20,000 nt of DNA, taken from IMG/VR virus record IMGVR_UViG_3300043427_001443. One strand, given 5' to 3'. The notes beneath the pieces were generated by a model. It did not search any database. It worked only from the letters and a program-made list of their open reading frames with translations, and had not been told where the DNA came from. Made by a program: the position numbers and the translations under genes. Below, one piece after another: positions 1,669 through 18,267 of the stretch. Numbering within the stretch: position 1 is the stretch's first letter; each line of letters starts with the position of its first letter. The stretch is from an uncultured virus (IMG/VR IMGVR_UViG_3300043427_001443). Lineage: Duplodnaviria; Heunggongvirae; Uroviricota; Caudoviricetes.

Positions 1669-2415
1669 ATGTTCCTAACCGAGTTATTTGAAGCCGCTAC
1701 ACAGCCATATTTGGTAGTCTATCCAGGTAGATTTCAACCTTTTCACAAAGGGCATCGTGCAGTCTACGATTACCTAGTAAAGAAGTATGGTCGTGATCAT
1801 GTGTTTATTGCTACCAGCAACAAGGTAGACCCTCCTAGAAGTCCTTTTACGTTTAGTCAAAAGGCACAGTTTATGCAGTTAACTGGTGTGCCCATGGATC
1901 GTGTGGTAGAAACACGCGATCCATATCGTGCACCAGAGCTAACGCAACATTACCCAGAAAACACTAGACTGATATTTGCGGTCAGCGAAAAAGACATGTC
2001 AGAAGATCCACGGTTTTCAAAGTGGACTAAAAAAGATGGGTCACCTAGCTACTTTCAACCCATGCCCAGCAGTGCCAGCGACATGGTAGGCATGAATCAA
2101 CATGGTTATATTATGACTGTGCCCACGTTTAATTTCACTGTCTTGGGCGAGCCCATGCGTAGTGCTACTCAAGTACGAGCACAATTTGCTGCTGCCGACG
2201 ACGAAACACAAAAGGCCATTATACGAGACCTATTTGGATCCTATGATGAGCATGTACATCAAATCATGAAACAGCACATACATGAAGATGCTGCGGGCGT
2301 AGGTGTAATTGCCAGCAATAAACAACGCCGGGATCCACGCTATCTTAATAGTCTAACAGTAGATGTTCAACCAGGCACACAGCGCAAGATGATGCGAGCC
2401 ATGCGTTTAATATAA
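1669..2415 (+). CDS. HxGH cytidyltransferase-like nucleotidyltransferase with N-terminal leader and C-terminal appended peptide module
   Basis: VVYPGRFQPFHKGH (HxGH/HIGH motif), SPFTFSQK and MRSATQVR (SAT/SST motif). Starts MFLTELFE; a separate basic module follows QHIHE. Confidence 0.85.
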   Translation: MFLTELFEAATQPYLVVYPGRFQPFHKGHRAVYDYLVKKYGRDHVFIATSNKVDPPRSPFTFSQKAQFMQLTGVPMDRVVETRDPYRAPELTQHYPENTRLIFAVSEKDMSEDPRFSKWTKKDGSPSYFQPMPSSASDMVGMNQHGYIMTVPTFNFTVLGEPMRSATQVRAQFAAADDETQKAIIRDLFGSYDEHVHQIMKQHIHEDAAGVGVIASNKQRRDPRYLNSLTVDVQPGTQRKMMRAMRLI

Positions 2416-3658: not shown

Positions 3659-5833
3659 ATGCGAGCTCGTAATTTTATAGCAGAAGCAGAACTATTTGAA
3701 ATAAACATGAGTCCTGGCAACCTTAAACAGTTGGCCAGTAAAATAGACGCTCGTGTGGGCATGGAATTTGAAATGATTGTGCCCAATGTTGAATCCGATG
3801 AAAGTAGCGAAAGCGAACCCGATTATACCAATGATGAGCGTGTACGCGGTTGGAGTTCCATTGAACAATTTTTCAACGACGGTGAATGGAACTCGAGATC
3901 GTCAGTGTCTGATCTACATAACGAACTGTTTCAAGAATACACAGAAAGTGACTACTGGCGGGAAGCCGAAGACTCGTGGTGGGAAGAAAACCAAGAATAC
4001 TATGTAGAACAAGCAGTTGAAAAAGAACTAGGCGAAGAGCTATGGGCACAGGCCGCAGAACAATTAGGCGACAAGAAGTTTGCCGACGAGCGTGACCGTA
4101 AGAATGCCATACAAGAGATATACAGCACTCTGGTCTCGGATCGTAGAGATGAAAGTATACAAAACACAGACGAGATCTATGACCTCGCTCAAGACGAAGC
4201 CATGGAGGAGTCTGAGCCAGACCATGGCACCGGATTTGATCGTTTCCTACGTGGCACATACAGCTACATGACAGACATTGAAAGTAATTTTGCTAGTATA
4301 ATAACTTGGCCGCATTGGGAAATGGCCGGCGATGCTGATGTTGATGTTGGCACAGTAGCCAACGATTTTTCACCTTATGTGGGCATGAAGGTTGACTACA
4401 GCCAAAGTTATCACGGTGCCAAGCGTAAACCAGACACTTATGTGGTCGAACCCGACTCGAGTTTGAGTGGCGACAATCCCGGTGACGCAGGCTTAGAGTT
4501 TGTGAGTCCACCACTGACCCTAGAGCAAATGGGCAAACACTTGGAAGGTGTGCGAGAATTTGCTCGCGACCATAACTGCTACACTAATCGTACCACTGGC
4601 CTACATATCAATGTCAGCGTGCCCAACATGAACTTAGAAAACCTAGACTATGTGAAATTGGCTCTGCTGCTAGGTGACAAGTATGTACTAGAACAATTTG
4701 GTAGGTCGGCTAATACCTATACCAAGAGTGCCATGGATGAAATACTGACCCGGGCCAAAAGCAATCGTGATCAAGTTCCTGGCCTGTTAGACATGATGAA
4801 AAATGGCCTAAACAAAATGGCCAGCAAAATGATACACAGTGGCATAACCGGCAAGTATACCAGTATTAATACCAAAGACAAATACATTGAGTTTCGCAGC
4901 CCAGGTGGCGACTGGCTCAATGAAGACCTAGACAAGATTGTAGCCACTATGAATCGCTTTGCTGTGGCCTTAGACGCCGCAGTTGATCCAGAAAAGTACA
5001 AAGAGGAATACAGTAAAAAATTATACAAAGTCATAGCACCAGAAGATGCTGATGATACTATCAAGTACTTTGCCAAATATGCAGCAGGAGCCATGCCCAA
5101 GGCAGCACTAAAGAGTTTCCTCAAGCAGGCTAAACTAGAACGCGAAGTCAAGCGTAAGCCAGATGATGGTAAACGCTACTGGTGGAAGGTCACAGTGGCA
5201 GGTAGTGGTGCAGGAGCGGAAGTAGTTGCTGCTAATCGGGATGAAGCCATTGATGCTACCATAGCCTCTAACTCGGCGCTGGCACGATACAATCGCGGTG
5301 CGTTTACTGCCAAGGTCCTTAGACCCTACGAAGGACCCGAGACTCCACAAAACAATACACCTGTAAGTGGTACAGGTAGTGCCCAACCGCCGGCACAGGA
5401 ACAACCTCGTAGACAAGATGGATCAATGACTGCACCCGAAAGTGATCCTGATGCTAACTTTGCTGTTATAAGATCCAGTGACAATGCTGTAATCAACTAT
5501 TTTACTCGTAATACCAGACAGGAAGCAGATCAAGCATTTACTAGATGGTTAGCGTCCCAAGGATTGGCTGGAAACCCATCACCTGGCTATTACCTTATTG
5601 CCATAAGACCCCGGCGTGATTCAGAAAGTCGAGCAAATGATGGTACCTGGACTGGGCGCTGGAACATTGTCACAGATCAAGGACAGGTCCTACACACATT
5701 TGGTGGCGTAGGCAATAGTCAAGCTGATGCCAATGCTCATGCTAGACAGTGGCTAGAAAGAAATCGTAGATTGGCTCAATCAACAGCAGGAGGATCACTC
5801 CTTGGACTAACAGTTGTTCCGGATCGGGCATGA
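3659..5833 (+). CDS. Putative amidoligase enzyme (COOH-NH2 ligase, glutamine synthetase/GCS fold) with acidic insertion and repeated C-terminal modules
   Basis: Ordered motifs VGMEFEM, EPDSSL, GLEFVSPP, TTGLHINVS, KYTSIN and IEFRSPGG match the Amidoligase_2-type pattern (ExE, DxS, ExxSP, GxHxxxS, ExR). Leader MRARNFIAE. Confidence 0.8.
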   Translation: MRARNFIAEAELFEINMSPGNLKQLASKIDARVGMEFEMIVPNVESDESSESEPDYTNDERVRGWSSIEQFFNDGEWNSRSSVSDLHNELFQEYTESDYWREAEDSWWEENQEYYVEQAVEKELGEELWAQAAEQLGDKKFADERDRKNAIQEIYSTLVSDRRDESIQNTDEIYDLAQDEAMEESEPDHGTGFDRFLRGTYSYMTDIESNFASIITWPHWEMAGDADVDVGTVANDFSPYVGMKVDYSQSYHGAKRKPDTYVVEPDSSLSGDNPGDAGLEFVSPPLTLEQMGKHLEGVREFARDHNCYTNRTTGLHINVSVPNMNLENLDYVKLALLLGDKYVLEQFGRSANTYTKSAMDEILTRAKSNRDQVPGLLDMMKNGLNKMASKMIHSGITGKYTSINTKDKYIEFRSPGGDWLNEDLDKIVATMNRFAVALDAAVDPEKYKEEYSKKLYKVIAPEDADDTIKYFAKYAAGAMPKAALKSFLKQAKLEREVKRKPDDGKRYWWKVTVAGSGAGAEVVAANRDEAIDATIASNSALARYNRGAFTAKVLRPYEGPETPQNNTPVSGTGSAQPPAQEQPRRQDGSMTAPESDPDANFAVIRSSDNAVINYFTRNTRQEADQAFTRWLASQGLAGNPSPGYYLIAIRPRRDSESRANDGTWTGRWNIVTDQGQVLHTFGGVGNSQADANAHARQWLERNRRLAQSTAGGSLLGLTVVPDRA

Positions 5834-7098
5834 GAGTTTTAGATTTATTTGAAGATGATAGCAAACATCAACAAGCCTTAAACCGAACAGGCTTTTGGGG
5901 GCGTCGTGGTGCTGGTTGTATTATCATGGCTAGGGACACTGGCAGATTTTGTATTGCTCATCGTAGCAACAGTGTTGAACAACCTGGTACCTGGGGTACT
6001 TGGGGTGGTGCTATAGATGAGGGCGAAGATCCTGCTCAAGCAGCTCGTAGAGAACTAGCAGAAGAAGCCGGCTACGCCGGTGCAATGAAGTTGGTACCTT
6101 TGTATGTGTTCAAGCATGAATCAGGATTTACTTATTATAACTTTCTAGCCATAGTCGAAAGGGAATTTCGGCCTAAGCTAGACTGGGAAACACAAGGATG
6201 GGATTGGGTAGAATATGGTGCGTGGCCCAATCCACTTCATCCTGGACTTAAGGCTGTATTATCAGATCCGCATAGCGTCGAAGTCATGCGTCGTGCTACA
6301 CCACCCCACCCGCAGCGTGGTTCGCACTATCCTAGCATTGAAACTCATAGCCTTACCCAACCACCCAAAACAGAAAGTGCTGTATTTGAAAAAGAATCCG
6401 ACGAACAAGAGATAGCAGCGACACCTAAATCAATACATTCTAAGCTACAAATAAGAAATCCTAAAAGCTCAGAGCGGGGAGTTTTGCATTATTATACCGA
6501 CGATGGGGCAAAATACATTAACAATTTTTTACATAAACATTATAGGCAACAAAAGTCTAAACTAAACAAAGGCGCTGATGTCGCTAAAATCGATAAAATT
6601 CTAAAACAATATAAACTAAAAGAAAATGTCAAGGTATATTCAGGCATACCAGAAAGTCCGGGTAGAATATGGGAGAAATACAAAGCAGATGTCACAAAAC
6701 CAGTGCGTGTTCATTTACCAGCATACACCAGCACTACTACAGATTTTAACATAGCCTATGTTAATTTCGCCAAAACCGACTACACTAACTATAATGATCA
6801 CAAACCTCGAAATGTACTCAAAGGAAATTTAGAGCTTTATTCAATGGGTGTAGTAAGTCAAGGCGTCAAAAAGGTTTACGACGGATGGCACATATTACAC
6901 ATTATTGTACCGGCAGGATATCCAGCAATGAGTTTACTTAATGTAAGTAAATTTGGTAGTCAAGAAGAAGAAATATTATTACCACGCGGCCTAGACATTG
7001 AAATAGAACCAAATCCTTATATAAAAACCACACCTGGTAGACCAATTGTAATATGGTTTGCCAAGGTAGTAGGACATAACCCAGTGGTGATAAAATGA
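5830..7098 (+). CDS. Nudix hydrolase - ADP-ribosyltransferase (VIP2/Alt-like) fusion protein
   Basis: Canonical Nudix box GGAIDEGEDPAQAARRELAEEAG (~6004-6072). The C-terminal domain has HYYTDDGAKYINNFLH, VYSG, YTSTT and EEEILLPRG, the layout of R-S-E class ARTs. Leader MRVLDLFE. Confidence 0.8.
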   Translation: MRVLDLFEDDSKHQQALNRTGFWGRRGAGCIIMARDTGRFCIAHRSNSVEQPGTWGTWGGAIDEGEDPAQAARRELAEEAGYAGAMKLVPLYVFKHESGFTYYNFLAIVEREFRPKLDWETQGWDWVEYGAWPNPLHPGLKAVLSDPHSVEVMRRATPPHPQRGSHYPSIETHSLTQPPKTESAVFEKESDEQEIAATPKSIHSKLQIRNPKSSERGVLHYYTDDGAKYINNFLHKHYRQQKSKLNKGADVAKIDKILKQYKLKENVKVYSGIPESPGRIWEKYKADVTKPVRVHLPAYTSTTTDFNIAYVNFAKTDYTNYNDHKPRNVLKGNLELYSMGVVSQGVKKVYDGWHILHIIVPAGYPAMSLLNVSKFGSQEEEILLPRGLDIEIEPNPYIKTTPGRPIVIWFAKVVGHNPVVIK

Positions 7099-11894: not shown

Positions 11895-12509
11895 ATGCTT
11901 AGTTGTAACCGAATTAGTATACGTACTGATTTGCATTGTGATCGTATATGCTTAGATCTGCATAAAAACGATTTTCTGTACTATGACAAAGATGGGTTTG
12001 AACTAAATCGTGCCGAACAAAAGTATTACCAAATCTGCGGCTATAAATTAGATCATACACTGAACCACCATGCTTATCAGGTACCTTGGTACACCAGTTC
12101 AGATCCAACACTGATCGTGGATCATAGTTTAATTTTATACCGTTGCGGATACCGAGGTGATGCCGAACGACAGCTACAAGCATTAAAAGAATCAATACCT
12201 CAAGCCAGCTTAATGCTAATGACCAAACCAAAATGGGGTTTTGATTTTGCTCTAGACAGTGTAGACAGCAATGGAAACCTATTCGAAGTTGTACATATTG
12301 AGTACGATACAAATATTTTTACTGAGTTCTGTAATCAAGTAAATAAAATACAAGAACGCATTGACCATACAGATTGGCGTGATGCTGCTAGCACCATAGA
12401 ACATAAACGCGATCAGTGGCAGTCCTTGCGTGGTTTTGCACAGAATGATTGGAAAGCTCGTTACTTGTTGAATTGGTCACGTGCCGAGTTTACCGAAAAG
12501 GCTATATAG
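11895..12509 (+). CDS. Hypothetical phage protein
   Basis: 204-aa ORF abutting the upstream gene. Aromatic-rich ([28 protein letters not shown]); no family recognised. Confidence 0.75.
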
Positions 12510-12514
12510 CATAC

Positions 12515-12612
12515 CCTTAGGACCGTCCTAGTTATCTAGGCCTAAGGCGCCGGGCGGCTGCTGCCCTGTCGATCCAACCTCCGCTACCACCCCGGATCGG
12601 CTAAAGTGAGCA
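12515..12612 (+). ncRNA. Candidate structured RNA / cis-element (three consecutive stems)
   Basis: Stem A: CCTTAGG (12515-21)/CCTAAGG (12541-47) enclosing bulge ACCGT and hairpin CCTAG-TTAT-CTAGG. Stem B: GGGCGG (12552-57)/CTGCCC (12561-66). Stem C: GTCGATCC (12568-75)/GGATCGGC (12594-601). The G-U pairs in B and C work only on the + strand. Intergenic and GC-rich. Confidence 0.55.
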
Positions 12613-12621
12613 TTTACACTA

Positions 12622-12650
12622 TTGCACCTGCTGCACAAATTCTGTATAAT
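12622..12650 (+). promoter_or_regulatory. sigma70-type early/middle promoter
   Basis: TTGCAC (12622-27)-N17-TATAAT (12645-50), followed by RBS AAGGAG (12662-67) and ATG 12673. Confidence 0.75.
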
Positions 12651-12672
12651 AAGATTTTTCCAAGGAGTCCAC

Positions 12673-12933
12673 ATGAGTGACCGTATGTTCAGTGCTGAGC
12701 AAAAGCTCAAGCTCACCCAAATAATCAACGAAGGTATTCAAGTATTAACCGAAATTGATGATCTTAACAGTGGTCTAAATGACACAGTAAAGGCAGTGGC
12801 AGAAGAACTAGAGATCAAGCCAGCTATTCTCAAGAAAGCTATCAAGATCGCTGCCAAAAGCAAGCTAGGTGAAACCAATCGTGACCACGACGATCTAAAT
12901 ACTATTTTGGAGACTGTGGGCCGTACTCTATGA
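12673..12933 (+). CDS. Small dsDNA-binding protein (T4 DsbA / GapR-like), 86 aa
   Basis: The true start is ATG 12673 with a strong RBS; the track's TTG 12622 is the -35 box. A coiled coil followed by DTVKAVAEELEIKPAILKKAIKIA is the DsbA/GapR-type layout. It lies directly before the polymerase. Confidence 0.6.
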   Translation: MSDRMFSAEQKLKLTQIINEGIQVLTEIDDLNSGLNDTVKAVAEELEIKPAILKKAIKIAAKSKLGETNRDHDDLNTILETVGRTL

Positions 12934-15584
12934 GTTATGTTGACGCACTATTCAGTCGTGAACAAAATCGTATCTACGTAGTAGAACGTGTAGATGGACG
13001 GCGTGTGTATCGCGACTACGCTGCCAATTATCAATTTTACTATGATGATCCCAAGGGTAAATTCCGTACCATTTATGGAACGCCAGTCAGTAGATTCAGC
13101 AGTCGCAACTACAAAGAATACAGTCGCGAACTCAAACTACACAGTAATCGTCAGCTTTGGGAATCTGACATCAAGCCGGTCAATCGCTGCCTAGAAGAAA
13201 ATTATCTAGGGCAAAATGCGCCACGTCTGCACACAGTATTTTTCGATATTGAAGTTGACTTTGACCCAGTACGTGGTTTCAGCCGTCCCGAGGATCCTTT
13301 TAATCCCATTACTGCTATTAGTTTGTACTTGGACTGGCTAGATCGTTTGGTTACCTTGGTAGTGCCTCCTAAGACACTGAGCTGGGAATCAGCCACAGAA
13401 ATGATCAGCAAGTATGACAACTGTTTTCTAGTAGAGCGCGAAGAAGATTTGATTTTGACCTTTCTGGATCTCATTGACGATGCAGACATACTCAGTGGGT
13501 GGAACTCAGAAGGCTTTGATATTCCCTACATGGTCATGCGTACCAATCGAATTTTAAGCAAAGACGATACACGTAGATTTTGTTTATGGGAACAGTATCC
13601 TAAACAGCGTACCTTTGAGCGTTTTGGTGCAGAAAACATCACATTCGATCTTGTTGGTCGTGTGCACATGGACTATATGCAACTATATAGAAAATACACC
13701 TATGAGGAACGACATAGTTACAGCTTAGACGCCATTGGCGAATACGAACTTGATGAAAGGAAAATTCAATACGAAGGTACACTAGACCAATTGTACAACA
13801 GAGATTTTATAACCTTTGTTGACTACAACAGACAAGACACCATGTTGTTGGCCAAGTTGGACAAGAAACTGCGTTTTCTAGATCTAGCCAACGAACTAGC
13901 GCATGATAACACTGTGTTATTACCCACTACCATGGGAGCTGTAGCAGTAACCGAGCAGGCTATTATCAACGAAGCCCATAGTATGGGACTAGTAGTTCAA
14001 AATAGGAAAAATCATGAAGGTGACACTCAAGCGGCAGGTGCCTATGTTGCTTATCCCAAAAGGGGCATGCACGAATACATTGGCGCAATCGACATCAACA
14101 GTCTGTATCCGTCAGCGATCCGCGCTCTTAACATGGCCCCGGAAACCATTGTCGGACAATTGCGACCCACTTATACAGAACGTTACATAAAGGACAAAAT
14201 GGACTCAGGCAGTTCGTTTGCAGATGCCTGGGAAAATTTGTTTGGAAGTCTAGAATACACCATGGTCATGAACCAAGAAGCTGGTCGAGAAATTACCATA
14301 GACTGGGAAACTGGTGGTTCGGACGTTATGATGGCTCGCGACGTTTATCAATTGATCTTTGAAGGTCGTCAACCTTGGATATTGAGTGCAAATGGAACTA
14401 TCTTTAAGTATGATACCAAAGGCATTGTACCGGGCTTGCTTGAGCGTTGGTACGCTGAAAGAAAAGAGCTACAGGCTAAGAAGAAAGACGCACAGACTGC
14501 TGAAGACAAGGCCTTTTGGGACAAGCGACAGTTGGTTAAGAAAATTAACCTTAACTCACTGTATGGTGCTATCCTTAATCCTGGATGTCGCTTTTTTGAC
14601 AAGCGTATTGGTCAAAGTACAACCCTGACAGGTCGTGCAATTGCACGTCACATGGATGCACATGTCAACGAGTGCGTCACTGGCGAGTACGATCATGTAG
14701 GCCGAGCCATTATATACGGCGACACTGATTCTGTTTACTTTTCAGCTTATCCTATTCTCAAACCGGAAATAGAAGCAGGTACCATGGAATGGAACAAGGA
14801 TATCTGTATTCAACTCTACGATACCATTGCCGAAAGCGTCAATGACAGTTTTCCAGCGTTCATGGATCGAGCCTTTAATTGCCCTAGGGACATGGGTGCC
14901 ATTATCAAAGGCGGGCGCGAGTTGATCGCCAGCAAAGGCCTGTTTATTAAGAAAAAGCGTTATGCTGTGCTGATCTATGATCTGGAAGGTGCTAGGCTGG
15001 ATATCAATGGCAAGCCAGGTAAAGTCAAAGCCATGGGTCTAGATCTTAAACGGTCAGACACTCCCAAGGTAGTGCAAGACTTTCTCAGTGATCTACTGCT
15101 ACGAGTGCTTACTGGTTCCGATGCTGCTTATGTATACGATCGTGTACGCGAGTTTAAAACCGAATTCCAGAAACGCCCGGCCTGGGAGAAGGGTACACCG
15201 AAACGTGTGAACAATCTTACTCATTATGGTGAGCTAGAAAACAAGAAAGGTCGAGCCAACATGCCCGGGCACGTTCGAGCTGCACTAAACTGGAATACTC
15301 TGCGTCGTATGCACTCAGACAACTACAGCATGCAAATTGTGGATGGTATGAAAACCATTGTGTGTAAACTGCGATCTAATCCTTTGGGCTATACATCTGT
15401 GGGCTATCCCACTGACGAAACTCATATACCACAGTGGTTTAAAGATTTGCCTTTTGATGATGGGCTTATGGAAGACACCATTGTGGATCAGAAAGTGGAA
15501 AATCTATTAGGTGTACTTGGTTGGAGTATTGCCGAGCATACCAGTATCAAGACCACATTTGACCAACTGTTTACTTTTGAATAA
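12930..15584 (+). CDS. gp43: Family B DNA polymerase (T4 gp43-like) with 3'-5' exonuclease
   Basis: ExoI FFDIEVD, ExoII WNSEGFDIPY, ExoIII YNRQD. Polymerase motifs DINSLYPS, KINLNSLYG, YGDTDS and KKRYA. C-terminal TTFDQLFTFE is a clamp-binding-like tail. Uninterrupted, with no intein or intron. Confidence 0.97.
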   Translation: MSYVDALFSREQNRIYVVERVDGRRVYRDYAANYQFYYDDPKGKFRTIYGTPVSRFSSRNYKEYSRELKLHSNRQLWESDIKPVNRCLEENYLGQNAPRLHTVFFDIEVDFDPVRGFSRPEDPFNPITAISLYLDWLDRLVTLVVPPKTLSWESATEMISKYDNCFLVEREEDLILTFLDLIDDADILSGWNSEGFDIPYMVMRTNRILSKDDTRRFCLWEQYPKQRTFERFGAENITFDLVGRVHMDYMQLYRKYTYEERHSYSLDAIGEYELDERKIQYEGTLDQLYNRDFITFVDYNRQDTMLLAKLDKKLRFLDLANELAHDNTVLLPTTMGAVAVTEQAIINEAHSMGLVVQNRKNHEGDTQAAGAYVAYPKRGMHEYIGAIDINSLYPSAIRALNMAPETIVGQLRPTYTERYIKDKMDSGSSFADAWENLFGSLEYTMVMNQEAGREITIDWETGGSDVMMARDVYQLIFEGRQPWILSANGTIFKYDTKGIVPGLLERWYAERKELQAKKKDAQTAEDKAFWDKRQLVKKINLNSLYGAILNPGCRFFDKRIGQSTTLTGRAIARHMDAHVNECVTGEYDHVGRAIIYGDTDSVYFSAYPILKPEIEAGTMEWNKDICIQLYDTIAESVNDSFPAFMDRAFNCPRDMGAIIKGGRELIASKGLFIKKKRYAVLIYDLEGARLDINGKPGKVKAMGLDLKRSDTPKVVQDFLSDLLLRVLTGSDAAYVYDRVREFKTEFQKRPAWEKGTPKRVNNLTHYGELENKKGRANMPGHVRAALNWNTLRRMHSDNYSMQIVDGMKTIVCKLRSNPLGYTSVGYPTDETHIPQWFKDLPFDDGLMEDTIVDQKVENLLGVLGWSIAEHTSIKTTFDQLFTFE

Positions 15585-16386: not shown

Positions 16387-16739
16387 TTAAAAGCCTGGTT
16401 TCACAAGGTCCATACCTTGTTGTTAACGGTGGATACAACAACTATCCATATATGAGCCCGGGTGCTGTTGGCGCAGGACAGCTACGTTGGAACACCAACA
16501 TCAATGACATGGAAGTCAATGATGGTGTAAGTTGGCGTAGCCTAAATGCTAATAATACCTCCATTGCACTAACCACAGAAGCACAAGATGCACTAAGCTG
16601 GGCAATGACCAAGATGCAACAAGAACGTGAACTAAATGAGCGTATACAGCGTCATCCTGGCTTGCGTGACACCTGGGAAAAGTTTAAAATAATGGAAGCA
16701 CTATGTCAGGAAGAAGATGCAAGACAATCTAACAGCTAA
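16383..16739 (+). CDS. Hypothetical protein
   Basis: ATGA overlap with the upstream gene. Contains GQLRWNTNINDMEVNDGVSW, then a helical C-terminus (HPGLRDTWEKFK). Confidence 0.75.
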   Translation: MIKSLVSQGPYLVVNGGYNNYPYMSPGAVGAGQLRWNTNINDMEVNDGVSWRSLNANNTSIALTTEAQDALSWAMTKMQQERELNERIQRHPGLRDTWEKFKIMEALCQEEDARQSNS

Positions 16740-18267
16740 ACAAAAGGACTATGCCGTGTTTCTGCCGGCTATTTCTGGTTTCTATGCTACCTTTATAGGG
16801 AAACAGCGTGATCCTGTAACAGGTCCTTATGTGGATCCTGCACGTTTTCCACAAGGGCTCACAGACATGGAGCAGCTAAATTGGTTAAATGCTCAACAAG
16901 GTCTGTATACATATCAGTGGAGTTTGTATTCAGGAGGCCATGCCAACTTGGATTTAACCAAACAGGATTGGTCTGAGGACATGGTACGTAATCGAGCATC
17001 AGGCACATTCATGCTAGGTGATTCGGGTGGGTTCCAGATTGCCAAAGGACTTTGGGAAGGTGATTGGAAAGCCAATTCTGGATGTGCTCGAGCACAGCAC
17101 AAACGCGAGTCAGTGTTGAAATGGCTTGACAGCATTTCGGACTATGGCATGATTTTAGATATTCCTACCTGGGTTATTCATGATAAAAAGGCCAGTGCTG
17201 CTTGCAAAATCAGCACACTAACCGAAGCTGTGGATGCTACCAAGTTCAACAACGAATATTTTATCAATAATCGTCGCGGTGTGGCCAATGGTGGTGCACG
17301 TTTTCTCAATGTATTACAAGGTGATAACCATACCAGTGCCGAATCATGGTATCAAATCATGAAGCACTACTCAGATCCCAAGCAATACCCAGGACGCCAT
17401 TTTGATGGTTGGGCCATGGGCGGTCAAAACATGTGCGACGTTGAACTTATTCTCAAAAGGCTAGTTGCACTTAAATACGATGGATTATTACAGGAGGGTA
17501 TACATGATTGGATGCACTTTTTGGGAACCAGTAAACTCGAATGGGCGGTATTACTTACAGTCATACAGCGAGCAATACGCAAGTACGCAAACCCCAACTT
17601 CACCATCAGCTTTGACTGTGCTAGTCCATTCTTGGCAACCGCTAACGGCCAGGTCTATTACGAAAACACTTATCCCAACTTGGACAAATGGAGTTATCGA
17701 ATGGCGCCTAGTGCCGACGATAAGCGATATGCAACCGATACACGTCAGTGGAGTACTGGGGTACTAGCTGACAAAATATTCGAAAGTTGGCAGGATAGTC
17801 CAATTAGTAGCTTGCTCACCATGCGTGATATATGTTACTATAAGCCCGGGGATCTCAATAAAAACGGCAAAGAAGGTCGAACCAGTTGGGATAGTTTCAG
17901 TTATTGTTTACTGATGTCACACAATGTTTGGATGCATATTACCGCAGTGCAAGAAGCCAATCGTAGATTTGATTCCGGAACAAGACCGCGCATGATGGAA
18001 TATGAAGCGCCCGGTGCCGATCATTTTGAAGATATTGTAGAGGCTATTTTCGCTGCACCTACTAGACAGGAGTCCGAAGCTATTATCGCCGGCTATCACA
18101 AATACTGGATGCAGATTGTAGGTACTCGTGGTTTCGCTGGCAAGAAGGCACTGAATTCTCGCACACAAGCAGATCAACACATTGAAATTGAAGGTTCAGT
18201 TTCAGTGGATCGTGTAAAGAAAGAACGTGCCGAACCTGACCTTAACACTTCACTATTTGAGATTTAA
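16717..18267 (+). CDS. dpdA: tRNA-guanine transglycosylase (TGT)-fold protein, probable DpdA-like DNA 7-deazaguanine transglycosylase
   Basis: TGT motifs in order: MLGDSGGFQI, MILDIP, NVLQG, GWAMGG, WMHFLG, ISFDCASP, SHN. Lacks the CxCxxC zinc site of tRNA TGTs. Lies between replication genes and a QueD-like gene. The fold call is firm; the DNA substrate is inferred. Confidence 0.8.
   Translation: MQDNLTAKQKDYAVFLPAISGFYATFIGKQRDPVTGPYVDPARFPQGLTDMEQLNWLNAQQGLYTYQWSLYSGGHANLDLTKQDWSEDMVRNRASGTFMLGDSGGFQIAKGLWEGDWKANSGCARAQHKRESVLKWLDSISDYGMILDIPTWVIHDKKASAACKISTLTEAVDATKFNNEYFINNRRGVANGGARFLNVLQGDNHTSAESWYQIMKHYSDPKQYPGRHFDGWAMGGQNMCDVELILKRLVALKYDGLLQEGIHDWMHFLGTSKLEWAVLLTVIQRAIRKYANPNFTISFDCASPFLATANGQVYYENTYPNLDKWSYRMAPSADDKRYATDTRQWSTGVLADKIFESWQDSPISSLLTMRDICYYKPGDLNKNGKEGRTSWDSFSYCLLMSHNVWMHITAVQEANRRFDSGTRPRMMEYEAPGADHFEDIVEAIFAAPTRQESEAIIAGYHKYWMQIVGTRGFAGKKALNSRTQADQHIEIEGSVSVDRVKKERAEPDLNTSLFEI

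Follow-up and report, generated by a model that had tools for sequence, protein, structure and literature searches.

Introduction

Several described systems bear on the element reported here. Loop-presenting antisense RNAs of plasmids and phages include CopA/CopT, RNA I/RNA II, and Sok/hok. Phage T4 makes rnaC and rnaD (species 1 and 2), small stable RNAs with no known role that are processed from longer transcripts. In archaea and eukaryotes, box C/D and H/ACA RNAs pick rRNA sites via antisense elements; to our knowledge, no rRNA guide system of the C/D or H/ACA kind has been described in bacteria or phages. Lastly, the preQ1-II riboswitch is an H-type pseudoknot with a hairpin in its long loop.

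The DNA analyzed, referred to throughout as the window, is a 20,000-nucleotide stretch from an uncultured virus of the Caudoviricetes (IMG/VR record IMGVR_UViG_3300043427_001443). Window positions 12510-12612 are one member of an uncatalogued family of structured + strand RNAs of ~70-120 nt. The family architecture consists of a domain, P1, with the invariant motif CCUUAGGACCG; a hairpin, P2, with a loop that pairs with the 3' tail GU(G)AGC in an H-type pseudoknot; and a variable hairpin, P3, between that loop and the tail. The preQ1-II riboswitch likewise joins the loop of one hairpin to a 3' tail and places a second hairpin in the interval, but the phage RNA has no Rfam match, no association with a gene class, and no expression platform.

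Architecture and Folding of the Element

The features of the locus, in base-pair order, are these:

11895-12509, + strand: upstream ORF, 204 aa, no family; its stop codon, TAG (12507-12509), lies 5 nt before the conserved motif
12510-12612, + strand: structured RNA element, between the upstream ORF and the dsbA-like/polymerase pair
12515-12547, + strand: P1 domain (stem 1 plus inner hairpin), from the sequence, RNAfold, and the antisense comparison
12515-12526, + strand: motif S1, CCUUAGGACCG(U), the family's invariant 5' motif; CCUUAGGACCG itself is 12515-12525
12552-12566, + strand: P2 hairpin GGGCGG-CUG-CUGCCC, made of GGGCGG (12552-12557), CTG, and CTGCCC (12561-12566); its core CGGCUGCUG is invariant
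12557-12561, + strand: pseudoknot 5' strand, the P2 loop GCUGC, from comparative evidence
12568-12601, + strand: P3 hairpin (stem 3), GTCGATCC (12568-12575) with GGATCGGC (12594-12601)
12603-12612, + strand: 3' tail AAAGUGAGCA; G12606, U12607, A12609, G12610, and C12611 pair with the P2 loop, and G12608 is bulged
12622-12650, + strand: sigma-70-like promoter, TTGCAC (12622-12627), 17 nt, TATAAT (12645-12650); outside the RNA and serving the downstream pair
12662-12667, + strand: Shine-Dalgarno sequence AAGGAG for the DsbA-like gene
12673-12933, + strand: gene for a DsbA-like small DNA-binding protein, 86 aa (phrog_12534, 5.4e-20; phrog_639, 9e-08)
12930-15584, + strand: family B DNA polymerase gene (phrog_262, 1e-191; PF00136, PF03104), overlapping the preceding stop codon

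The three hairpins of the original prediction are all present in the sequence, and RNAfold recovered each of them on the + strand, at -38.0 kcal/mol overall. Within stem 1, where CCTTAGG (12515-12521) pairs with CCTAAGG (12541-12547), lie the bulge ACCGT (12522-12526) and the inner hairpin (12527-12540), formed by CCTAG (12527-12531) and CTAGG (12536-12540) around TTAT. The first seven positions of S1 (12515-12521) are predicted to be paired (unpaired probability 0-0.02) and the next four (12522-12525) to be unpaired. The P3 loop comprises 18 nt (12576-12593; unpaired probability at least 0.98) and carries at 12581-12588 the sequence CCGCUACC, the window lineage's form of the family motif (A)UUCGCUAC(C). 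Directly 3' of P3 is TAAAGTGAGCA (12602-12612).

A stability beyond that of dinucleotide shuffles, a yardstick named in the original prediction, was obtained only marginally: the + strand gave a z of -1.91 against a mean of -31.7 for 200 shuffles, 8 of which were as stable. The - strand had no advantage over its own 200 shuffles (z +0.54, 143/200). As folding energy alone is marginal, the existence of the element rests on conservation and covariation.

The RNA Family and Its Pseudoknot

Homologues do form a conserved, covarying family, as the original prediction would have it. A covariance model matched 99 members, in whose alignment 88.8% of cells were paired versus 61.9% after shuffling (0/500 shuffles attained the native value). 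The covariation score was 0.624, versus 0.171 when shuffled and 0.05-0.10 when the partners were slid; across the family, all but two of the 18 pairs (16) showed changes in both partners. Model-based alignment was required here, because MAFFT plus RNAalifold on 71 sequences recovered P2 alone. About 30 letters of the family are invariant, in motif sets drawn partly with patterns that require the conserved letters. In a 19-row alignment of close relatives, conservation was higher in the element than in the coding DNA that flanks it or in the spacer of the promoter.

The P1 helix changed on both sides in 4/4 pairs family-wide, and the inner P1 stem covaries among close relatives (CCTAG/CTAGG to CATAG/CTATG or CACAG/CTGTG). 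Stem 1 as originally predicted exists in the window, but its particular pairing of CCTTAGG with CCTAAGG is lineage-specific: CCUUAGGACCG is invariant, whereas its partner varies or is absent. Exact CCUUAGG was found in 37 of 41 covariance-model members, these 41 being loci picked via a neighboring protein. The S1 variants are mixed, as GGGCC and CCUUGGG retain pairing as G-U, whereas GGUCC, GGACG, and GGAAC do not.

In P2, 99.7% of cells are paired; the outer pairs covary (both-side changes in 4/6 pairs), whereas the core is invariant. The G-U pair of stem 2 was found in 99/99 members, and because it would be A-C on the opposite strand, the assignment of a structured RNA to the + strand is borne out. 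All eight P3 pairs changed on both sides, with covariation also among close relatives; native P3 arms averaged -6.88 kcal/mol versus -2.31 for chimeric arms (p 1.4e-26, 79 distinct), and 50 of 615 P3 pairs were G-U or U-G.

The pairing of GCTGCT with AGTGAGC, proposed from the window as a possible pseudoknot, is upheld by covariation of the loop and tail (GCUGC with GUGAGC). A P2 loop with C7 occurred with tail AGC in 112 cases and with ACC in none, whereas a loop with G7 occurred with AGC once and with ACC in 37 (Fisher p 2e-34, uncorrected for phylogeny). In G9 loop variants, the matching tail letters are altered or deleted, an indel-type compensation. The other proposed alternative, between loop CCGCT and GGCGG, found no comparative support: stem 2 covaries, and entire lineages have another motif in the loop, as in types D and E (27/258), or none, as in locus L046. 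The 18-nt C-rich loop is real, but it is a 9-nt loop that has expanded in the window's lineage. A loop-to-junction pairing of ACGCC with GGCGU fits loop types B and C and the family of Limnohabitans phage DC31, but not type A.

Beyond this core, the P1 hairpin that mirrors helix 69 of 23S rRNA (see below) is missing from minimal members, and optional peripheral hairpins are capped by GNRA tetraloops (GAAA, GCAA). The 5' flank of the element is conserved and A-rich. Immediately 3' of the tail, A is present in 83% of 96 distinct members and is followed by a G-poor, U-rich (mixed A/U) run.

Known RNA Classes

The statement that the element matches no known RNA class survived a covariance-model search: Rfam 15 gave no matches in the 20-kb window at gathering thresholds. 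At E<=10 there were two - strand matches in the window, both far under gathering (21.4/40 and 10.1/57), and 20 family loci gave six matches at E 1-8.4, only one of which touches an element (L195, 8 nt, opposite strand). The models of known self-cleaving ribozymes (hammerhead, twister, twister-sister, pistol, hatchet, and HDV-like) did not match, and on manual mapping, by reasoning only, the strand order does not fit the nested double pseudoknot of the HDV-like class. Likenesses to SRP RNA, 5S rRNA, Y RNA, the sarcin-ricin loop, and CsrA sites are short and unsupported.

An intrinsic terminator was rejected, in agreement with the original prediction, because no hairpin is followed immediately by a U-run and none of 22 terminator-like sites falls in 12400-12700. 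Nor does a riboswitch fit: the flanking genes are unrelated, there is no terminator or sequestered start, and a promoter separates the element from the next gene in the window. ARAGORN found no tRNA or tmRNA in the window or within 1.5 kb in 60 family loci, whereas the T4 rnaC and rnaD genes lie in a tRNA cluster. The rnaD loop GUCGCUA, within ACCGG...CCGGU, has the letters UCGCUAC of the family P3 loop, but the T4 RNAs have neither the S1 motif nor the pseudoknot core, and our model R1 did not match the T4 locus. A stable RNA of the T4 type was therefore rejected, UCGCUAC being the only shared letters.

Gene Neighborhood and Expression Context

Where an upstream ORF was called (81 of the 99 members examined; 18 had none), its stop codon lay inside S1 (17) or 3-13 nt before it (51), i.e., in 68/81. 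Both neighbors mostly share the element's strand: the upstream ORF does so in 84/89 loci and the downstream ORF in 79/89. Past the tail, the next ORF starts within 1-45 nt in 44 of 97 members with a called start, and a further 16 have GTG start calls within the tail; in the remainder, a promoter or a longer spacer follows. Leaders lacking a Shine-Dalgarno sequence past the element are unremarkable, as about half of the window genes are without one.

A link to a single gene family was rejected because the flanking genes differ widely; clustering of their proteins gave 74 groups with no relation to one another, among them DNA polymerase, radical SAM, ferredoxin, terminase, and nucleases. A dsbA-like/polymerase pair follows the element in about a quarter of members, in a sample partly chosen via dsbA. 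On the upstream side of the putative late/replication boundary, the ORFs in the window have glycosyltransferase-, cytidyltransferase-, NUDIX/Alt-, or endolysin-like PHROG matches or none, and none matches a structural gene. The promoter originally predicted downstream of the element is conserved in the 19-row alignment of relatives, but a consensus scan did not list it, and its -35 hexamer matches at only 3/6 positions. Given a promoter 3' of the element in the window and many relatives, the downstream genes there do not depend on the element for their expression. Twenty upstream flanks yielded no recurring sigma-70-like or TATAAATA-like motif that might be the element's own promoter.

One metatranscriptome contig of 187 nt (library X20) spans 12367-12553; it is single and of low depth, and may reflect DNA carry-over. 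RNA libraries X18 and X24 gave no contig across the element. The RNA would be made within a polycistronic transcript, and is possibly trimmed at the A/U-rich, G-poor run after the tail.

Distribution

The carriers form a clade of freshwater jumbo phages with genomes of ~320-375 kb and one copy each. A single match was found in each of four genomes of 320,767-374,314 bp (92-100% complete) and in one further record (G007), whereas carrier records of 33-47 kb are 10-13% fragments. Carrier contigs number in the hundreds and come from lakes, estuaries, and drinking water; four sequence patterns matched >120, 64, >121, and >120 stretches of viral contigs. The family is virtually phage-only. Among 185,579 species genomes, only two of 27 bacterial pattern hits were true members, both on MAG contigs, and the other 25 were chance matches in G+C-rich coding DNA, so a bacterial origin or an attachment-site fragment was rejected. 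No repeat family in the window includes the element, and with one copy in each of five whole records, a dispersed intergenic repeat (REP-like, or a T4-type promoter/stem-loop cassette) was likewise rejected.

Searching isolate phages by blastn, type A members had no matches and type B members matched only the 5' module of DC31. The nearest isolate by polymerase DNA, Xanthomonas phage XaC1, has no member (best E 0.475), and its syntenic spacer holds an ordinary hairpin plus a T7 terminator in place of the element. A second RNA family of ~190 nt, headed by the same antisense module, is present in Limnohabitans phage DC31 and Curvibacter phage P26059A; in DC31 it adjoins tRNA genes. No description of such an RNA was found in literature listings or in passages of the DC31 and P26059A genome papers.

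Complementarity to Ribosomal RNA

Complementarity to rRNA was missed in the original prediction. With E. coli rrnH as the reference, CCUUAGGACCG (12515-12525) is a perfect 11-nt antisense of 23S rRNA positions 1920-1930, a stretch made up of the helix 69 3' strand and the linker; in the window, the match extends to 12 nt (1919-1930), and the P1 3' strand CCUAAGG (12541-12547) is identical in letters to 1924-1930. The commonest P3 loop, type A (209/258 distinct members), is a 9-nt antisense of the abutting stretch 1929-1937. In the window's own P3 loop, only CGCUACC (7 nt) is antisense to 1929-1935, and its complement GGTAGCG occurs at both 830 and 1929. Loop types C and B match 23S positions 1968-1978, and types D and E have no meaningful rRNA match.

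In several lineages the likeness goes further. The best blastn-short match was on the minus strand of 23S 1900-1935 in 77/99 members, and seven members align over 1908-1933 for 22-24 nt at 87.5-96% identity (E 1e-5 to 6e-4); scores reached 35.3 bits versus a maximum of 25.7 in shuffled controls. The whole 5' domain of some members mirrors 1908-1933, and the P1 inner hairpin mirrors helix 69 in loci L121, L193, and L198. Among 258 distinct members, selected by patterns in which 10 of these letters are fixed, 249 have an uninterrupted antisense of 11-17 nt.

By chance, the operon should contain a given 11-mer 0.002 times, and an 11-mer with an abutting 7-mer 3e-7 times. In shuffled and sense controls, rRNA matches reach 8-10 nt, occasionally 11-12. 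Because 9-10-nt matches thus arise by chance, single-loop matches weigh little alone, as does that between P2 and 16S rRNA. In the latter, the P2 core CGGCUGCUG is antisense to 16S positions 519-527 (the 530 loop), with a second match at ~349; the core sits in the P2 stem and pseudoknot, and loop variants G7, U9, and A9 (105/227 distinct) break the 16S match but keep the pseudoknot. A duplex-energy scan of 23S did not discriminate (-28.9 at 1901 vs. -27.0 at 2231).

Discussion

Our preferred reading, which we consider plausible but hold only tentatively, is that the RNA base-pairs with host 23S rRNA around helix 69. The invariant S1 would pair with 1920-1930, and in many members the adjoining hairpin would carry the antisense on along helix 69; the P3 loop, in its commonest form, would pair with the abutting 1929-1937. 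The pseudoknot core could be a scaffold presenting the antisense segments, or could bind a protein. Helix 69 is exposed on nascent 23S rRNA or free 50S subunits, and pairing would need one or the other. Candidate consequences are that a subunit bridge is blocked, that the site is marked, or that an enzyme is recruited.

Several observations count against pairing with 23S rRNA. In the window the first seven letters of S1 are predicted to be held in stem 1 rather than freely exposed, and in mature ribosomes helix 69 and the 1925-1930 linker are structured. Strict conservation of S1 is equally compatible with a protein site or a tertiary contact, duplex energy fails to single out the 23S site, the P3 loop is replaced or absent in some lineages, and the behavior of the S1 variants is mixed.

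The position of the element between genes suggests a different role, somewhat unlikely in our judgment, as a cis-acting intercistronic mRNA element that marks the end of the upstream cistron, for example as a barrier in processing or decay, as a signal for pausing or termination, or as a device coupled to the ribosome stopping just before it; the resemblance to rRNA would then be incidental, or would tether the ribosome locally. Co-orientation with both neighbors, the lack of a recurring promoter, the stop codon in or just before S1, the closeness of the next ORF, the A followed by a G-poor, U-rich 3' flank, and the hairpin and terminator that take its place in XaC1 all fit such a role. However, compact phage genomes would space their genes tightly in any case, a promoter follows the element in the window and in many relatives, and no hairpin has an immediate U-run. 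A general operon-boundary device should also recur, whereas there is a single copy per 320-375-kb genome and its flanking genes differ widely, and ~30 invariant letters plus a pseudoknot exceed the needs of a barrier or terminator.

Those invariant letters might instead serve tertiary structure or catalysis, in an RNA acting without rRNA pairing as a protein scaffold or decoy, or as a small self-cleaving ribozyme of a new class. We regard this as possible but rather doubtful. A pseudoknot, conserved junction and loop letters, optional GNRA-capped hairpins, the lack of a gene association, and a phage context all speak for it, such features being hallmarks of small ribozyme and riboswitch-like classes; so do the partial burial of S1 in P1 in the window and the conserved A-rich 5' and A/U-rich 3' flanks. 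Yet no ribozyme or riboswitch model matched, the strand order found by manual mapping misfits the HDV-like nested double pseudoknot, and two things would be left unexplained: the 22-24-nt 23S antisense in the 5' domain of several lineages, and the covering of abutting rRNA segments by two separate motifs. Very improbable is a site acting at the level of DNA, such as an origin or packaging site or the target of a recombinase or endonuclease, in which hairpins would form in single-stranded DNA or be recognized as inverted repeats; the original prediction had entertained an origin or packaging element. The single copy per genome, the adjoining replication genes in the window lineage, and the near-palindromes CCTTAGG and GGACC are consistent with such a site, but the G-U pairs of P2 and P3 are strand-specific, the - strand folds no better than shuffles, the pseudoknot covaries even in its bulge and indel compensation, optional hairpins are GNRA-capped, and the position in the genome varies.

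Pairing with host 23S rRNA, if true, would make this the first known viral RNA directed at the RNA of the bacterial ribosome itself, at the bridge where subunits join. It would add a layer to the takeover of translation by giant phages, beside their tRNAs and ribosomal proteins, and would constitute a natural antisense design against a universally conserved region that is an antibiotic target. A more elaborate version strikes us as improbable: a phage-made guide, whose two segments would clamp the 23S strand where helices 69 and 70 meet, on large subunits that are nascent or free, while the pseudoknot recruited an enzyme of the phage or its host to cut, modify, or block that site. It would be the viral, bacterial-world counterpart of the rRNA guide RNAs, taking over or disabling host ribosomes. 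Even should the 23S reading fail, there is a large family, absent from Rfam, with an architecture defined by covariation and strictly one copy per genome. The related module in two cultured phage-host pairs, those of DC31 and P26059A, makes these ideas directly testable.

Relative to known systems, the phage RNA shares with box C/D and H/ACA guides, and with ribosome-associated ncRNAs, a short conserved antisense to universal rRNA on a structured scaffold, with two segments covering abutting rRNA stretches; it has no C/D or H/ACA boxes, and its pairing is putative. With CopA/CopT, RNA I/RNA II, and Sok/hok, it has in common a hairpin that mirrors a target hairpin (the P1 inner hairpin and helix 69 in the three loci named above) and adjacent single-stranded complementarity. 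Those RNAs, however, are transcribed opposite their targets and are fully complementary to them, whereas the phage RNA is trans-encoded and complementary over 11-24 nt, its putative target is rRNA, and it has an extra, invariant pseudoknot domain.

The Element and Its Surroundings

The element occupies positions 12510–12612 on the + strand of the window, and the three hairpins and tail that the original prediction described are all present in the sequence. The features concerned are as follows:

11895–12509: upstream ORF, 204 amino acids, of no family; its stop codon precedes the element
12515–12547 (+): stem 1 (P1 domain), with the 5' motif at 12515–12526
12552–12566 (+): stem 2 (P2 hairpin)
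12568–12601 (+): stem 3 (P3 hairpin)
12603–12612 (+): tail
12622–12650: sigma-70-like promoter TTGCAC-17-TATAAT, downstream of the element
12673–12933: dsbA-like gene (small DNA-binding protein), downstream of the promoter
12930–15584: family B DNA polymerase gene, downstream

The minimum-energy fold of the + strand (RNAfold) consists of those three hairpins, at −38.0 kcal/mol. Comparison with dinucleotide shuffles had been proposed as a check, and the + strand did fold better, but only marginally so (z −1.91; 8 of 200 shuffles fold as well); the − strand was ordinary (z +0.54; 143 of 200 shuffles equal it). A consensus scan gave no terminator-like site in 12400–12700, in agreement with the view that this is not a simple terminator. 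The promoter is absent from the list of the consensus promoter scan and is conserved among relatives in an alignment of 19 rows, and none of the ORFs further upstream of the element is recognizably late or structural, so the late/replication boundary at which it had been placed is a putative one. The record to which the window belongs is a fragment of 36.5 kb (10% completeness), and its phage was seen in DNA runs from lakes, estuaries, and drinking water, 13 or more studies in all. Elsewhere in the window, a 422 amino acid ORF (5830–7098) has an N-terminal NUDIX hydrolase match (phrog_1198, 4.7e-24) and weakly matches RNA polymerase ADP-ribosyltransferases of the Alt-like kind (phrog_802, 4.8e-05). 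A near-copy of the conserved 5' motif, TCTAGGACC, lies at 1646–1654 in the spacer ahead of an ORF starting at 1669, and a weak match to R1, the covariance model of the family, at 17683–17758 (+; 16.1 bits, E 0.056) falls within ORF 16717–18267 and is probably noise.

Conservation and Secondary Structure

Loci with relatives of two neighboring proteins carry the element at 75–92% identity, and over 19 distinct aligned rows it is near-invariant while the coding flank and promoter spacer drift. Stem 3 and the inner stem of stem 1 show compensating substitutions in this alignment; in two lineages (L100 and L096), stem 1 is missing entirely. MAFFT with RNAalifold recovered stem 2 alone, with a covarying closing pair, and a covariance model was therefore built, seeded from 12 minimal members. 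It gave significant matches in 50 of 100 sources picked via neighboring proteins, including loci without the exact pattern, and none in phages T4 and DC31. In the 99-member model alignment, which was fitted to the model and is thus biased towards structure, 88.8% of cells were paired, against 61.9% after shuffling (0 of 500 shuffles reached 88.8%) and 38–51% with partners slid; the covariation score was 0.624, compared with 0.171 for shuffles and 0.05–0.10 for slid partners, and 16 of 18 pairs changed on both sides. Alignment-free energies of the P3 arms agree with this, being −6.88 kcal/mol with their own partner but −2.31 when arms from different members are combined (79 distinct, p 1.4e-26). 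Across the 99 members, the outer three pairs of stem 2 flip between G-C and C-G around a constant CGG-CUG-CUG core, and the G-U pair of this stem is kept in all 99, so the + strand is the RNA strand, as the G-U pairs had been taken to favor.

The proposal that GCUGCU in the stem-2 loop might reach AGUGAGC in the tail was borne out by covariation between loop and tail. The pseudoknot pairs are G12557-C12611, C12558-G12610, U12559-A12609, G12560-U12607, and C12561-G12606, with G12608 bulged. Members were drawn with patterns fixing only the 5' motif and stem-2 flanks. Where loop position 2 is C (n = 117), the tail reads ..AGC in 112 and ..ACC in none, and the regular expression failed to parse the remaining five, four of which read GAGUGAGC; where it is G, the tail reads ..ACC in 37 of 38 (Fisher p 2e-34, ignoring shared ancestry). 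The loop-G variant spans varied stem-2 flanks, varied loops of the third hairpin, and two versions of the tail, and so is not one lineage. Where A replaces G as the fourth loop letter, the tail is GUGUAGC, GUAGC, or GUGGC, restoring a continuous helix each time, and where U replaces it, the tail GU is lost in 25 of 30 distinct members.

Anatomy of the Family

Members begin with an A-rich 5' flank, in which the preceding gene usually has its stop codon. The P1 helix is variable, but its 5' strand bears the invariant CCUUAGGACCG, whose partner is CCUAAGG in the window's lineage and CUARGG or UAAG elsewhere; minimal members have CCUUAGGACCG without a partner, placed in a 12-nt loop. An inner hairpin 3' of the motif is optional, and one lineage also has a second hairpin with a GAAA or GCAA cap. 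P2 is the hairpin whose loop pairs with the tail, and P3 is a two-part helix with a loop in five forms. One member (L046) has a minimal P3 with none of these loops, and the 18-nt C-rich loop of the window is a lineage-specific expansion around CCGCUACC. Most members were gathered by patterns in which some of the conserved letters are fixed; in the least biased sample, 41 model matches in loci picked through dsbA, 37 have CCUUAGG unchanged, three differ from it by one letter, and one lacks it.

Forms of the P3 loop among 258 distinct members
Type A: (A)UUCGCUAC, closed by G-C or A-U; 209/258
Type B: UUACGCCAG; 1/258 (under-sampled by the pattern)
Type C: AACGCCAUUC; 7/258
Type D: GGGAGUCGUGCCCC; 24/258
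Type E: GGCCGGGAAUCC; 3/258
Other: 14/258

Distribution, Genomic Context, and Expression

The first search pattern, two invariant blocks, found at least 120 stretches of viral contigs, and three more anchored on the 5' motif found 64, at least 121, and at least 120. Against one genome per species of 185,579 prokaryote species, the first pattern returned 27 stretches, of which 25 were rejected as chance matches in G+C-rich coding DNA and two were true members, both on metagenome-assembled-genome contigs. Of these two, L287 lies on a 6-kb contig of a Flavobacterium bin and L296 near the end of a 183-kb contig assigned to Haliscomenobacter; they may represent phage DNA placed in the wrong bin, or a hint of host. 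In contrast, the shared 5' module was found in Comamonadaceae phages. The element had originally been matched to no tRNA, hammerhead, twister, pistol, or preQ1 consensus, and it is not a known RNA: Rfam 15 at gathering thresholds gave no match in the whole 20-kb window, just two weak ones around the element at E ≤ 10 (both minus strand), and none on the strand of the element in 20 family loci. Neither the window nor any of 60 family loci gave a tRNA or tmRNA with ARAGORN. Rfam has no entry for the RNA family, and bacterial genomes have virtually no members of it.

Covariance-model matches per genome record
Near-complete, 354,429 bp, 98% complete: one
Near-complete, 374,314 bp, 100% complete: one
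Near-complete, 354,680 bp, 100% complete: one
Near-complete, 320,767 bp, 92% complete: one
Fragment (G007), 166 kb, 48% complete: one

Carriers of 33–47 kb are 10–13% fragments of such genomes. Because each near-complete genome has one match and the small carriers are fragments, the element is a single-copy feature of a jumbo-phage clade; one copy per near-complete record also rules out a dispersed repeat. It is, then, an RNA structure of jumbo phages that is conserved, pseudoknotted, on the + strand, and present in a single copy. More than one copy was seen only in a 117-kb viral contig, where two pattern matches (L450 and L451) lie ~840 nt apart on opposite strands (58250–58575 +, 59092–59417 −); the pair may reflect an inverted duplication or an artefact of assembly.

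The element was intergenic in 89/89 distinct loci of the first set, co-oriented with the upstream ORF in 84 and with the downstream ORF in 79; the flanking proteins form 74 clusters with no common theme. The window's order (element, promoter, dsbA-like gene, polymerase) was found in a sizeable minority of a sample that was partly dsbA-selected. An upstream ORF was called in 81 of the 99 members examined; its stop codon is the UAG within CCUUAGG in 17/81 and lies 3–13 nt ahead of the motif in 51/81. No recurring promoter motif was found in 20 upstream flanks. The base after the tail is A in 83% of 96 distinct members, and over the ten positions after that A, G falls to 0–9% (background 21.6%) and U reaches 38–67% (background 27%). 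Xanthomonas phage XaC1 (349 kb), the closest isolate by polymerase DNA, has no family member (best E 0.475), and its syntenic spacer, between a 198-aa gene and the dsbA-like/polymerase pair (L307 5232–5332), has in place of the RNA a canonical terminator made of a hairpin plus T7. A 187-nt contig from a freshwater metatranscriptome covers window 12367–12553, and a 264-nt contig, whose source library is guessed to be RNA, covers 12504–12768; as evidence of expression these are weak, since the ends and strand of a transcript cannot be read from contigs and DNA may have been carried over.

Complementarity to Ribosomal RNA

Antisense matches to rRNA of the real E. coli K-12 rrnH operon
CCUUAGGACCG: 23S 1920–1930 (CGGUCCUAAGG), 11 nt, perfect
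Type A loop: 23S 1929–1937 (GGUAGCGAA), 9 nt, abutting the first target
Type C loop: 23S 1968–1976, 9 nt
Type B loop: 23S 1971–1978, 8 nt
Stem-2 core: 16S 519–527, 9 nt (10–11 with flanks)

Single matches of this size mean little because shuffled and sense-strand controls give 8–10 nt, occasionally 11–12, within the 4.6-kb operon. More weight attaches to three observations. The 23S match coincides with the family's invariant motif, which is antisense to 23S 1920–1930; chance would provide a specified 11-mer 0.002 times, and one with a 7-mer abutting it 3e-7 times. For 77/99 members the best blastn-short match was to 23S 1900–1935, minus strand (maximum 35.3 bits, versus 25.7 for shuffles), and seven members (L121, L198, L193, L183, L173, L030, and L061) align across 23S 1908–1931/33 over 22–24 nt with 87.5–96% identity (E 1e-5 to 6e-4). 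From these alignments, the consensus CCUUAGGACCGUUAnnGUUAC reads as an antisense image of helix 69, which we take to span 23S 1906–1924, and its 3' flank, and the P1 inner hairpin reads as a mirror of the helix 69 hairpin.

The window member has 12 nt antisense to 23S 1919–1930 and the loop CGCUACC (1929–1935). The 3' strand of its stem 1, CCUAAGG, repeats the putative target (23S 1924–1930) letter for letter, and its tail resembles the 16S stretch with which the stem-2 loop could pair, so both antisense pieces are capped in cis; the first seven letters of its motif are predicted to be paired, leaving only ACCG and the P3 loop open. A duplex-energy scan did not single out the 23S site. The 16S match of the stem-2 core is doubtful because these letters also match 16S near 349, because stem and pseudoknot bury them, and because loop variants in 105/227 distinct members break the match and keep the pseudoknot via compensating tail changes. 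Some lineages dispense with the P3 loop or have a different one, and no meaningful match to rRNA exists for loop types D and E. The 5' motif has variants of both kinds, some retaining pairing as G-U and others not.

Relatives of the 5' Module and Interpretation

A type B member matches Limnohabitans phage DC31 (PQ492658) over the 5' module only, in a spacer (L300 1496–1690) directly 3' of a five-tRNA-gene cluster. This spacer has no Rfam match and is 68.7% identical to a spacer of Curvibacter phage P26059A (KY981271; L310 701–893). Both are cultured freshwater phages, and both spacers are unannotated, structured, and ~190 nt long; the available parts of their genome papers mention no non-coding RNA there. 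Common to the two are an A-rich flank, the motif CCUUAGGRCCG (in DC31, 13 nt antisense to 23S), a mirror hairpin, a second hairpin (GCAA cap in P26059A), AGGCGUC, and a later hairpin with loop CGCCAA. In a third context, three viral contigs (L396, L416, and L423, ~150–260 in each locus) have the motif CCUUAGGACCGUUAC and then a long, perfect hairpin of 13 bp, AUGCAGAAGCCGG...CCGGCUUCUGCAU. Across these contexts, the anti-helix-69 module is combined with different 3' domains.

Our tentative reading, held with rather less than even confidence, is that the RNA would base-pair with host 23S rRNA around helix 69, the pseudoknot serving as a scaffold; the portion of the literature open to our search held no account of a phage RNA complementary to rRNA. 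The adjoining stop codon, the 3' flank composition, and the terminator in the XaC1 spacer point instead to a cis-acting intercistronic device, against which stand the single copy and the amount of conservation, and we consider such a device unlikely. To a protein-binding RNA or new ribozyme that does not pair with rRNA we give similarly little credence, and a site acting at the DNA level seems very improbable indeed.

The family has a likeness in letters, which may be due to chance, to RNAs of phage T4. The first hairpin of T4 species 2 RNA (rnaD; L301 2554–2672, minus strand) is ACCGG-GUCGCUA-CCGGU and has UCGCUAC in common with the family's commonest P3 loop, and the complementary GAGUAGCG occurs twice in T4 rnaC.
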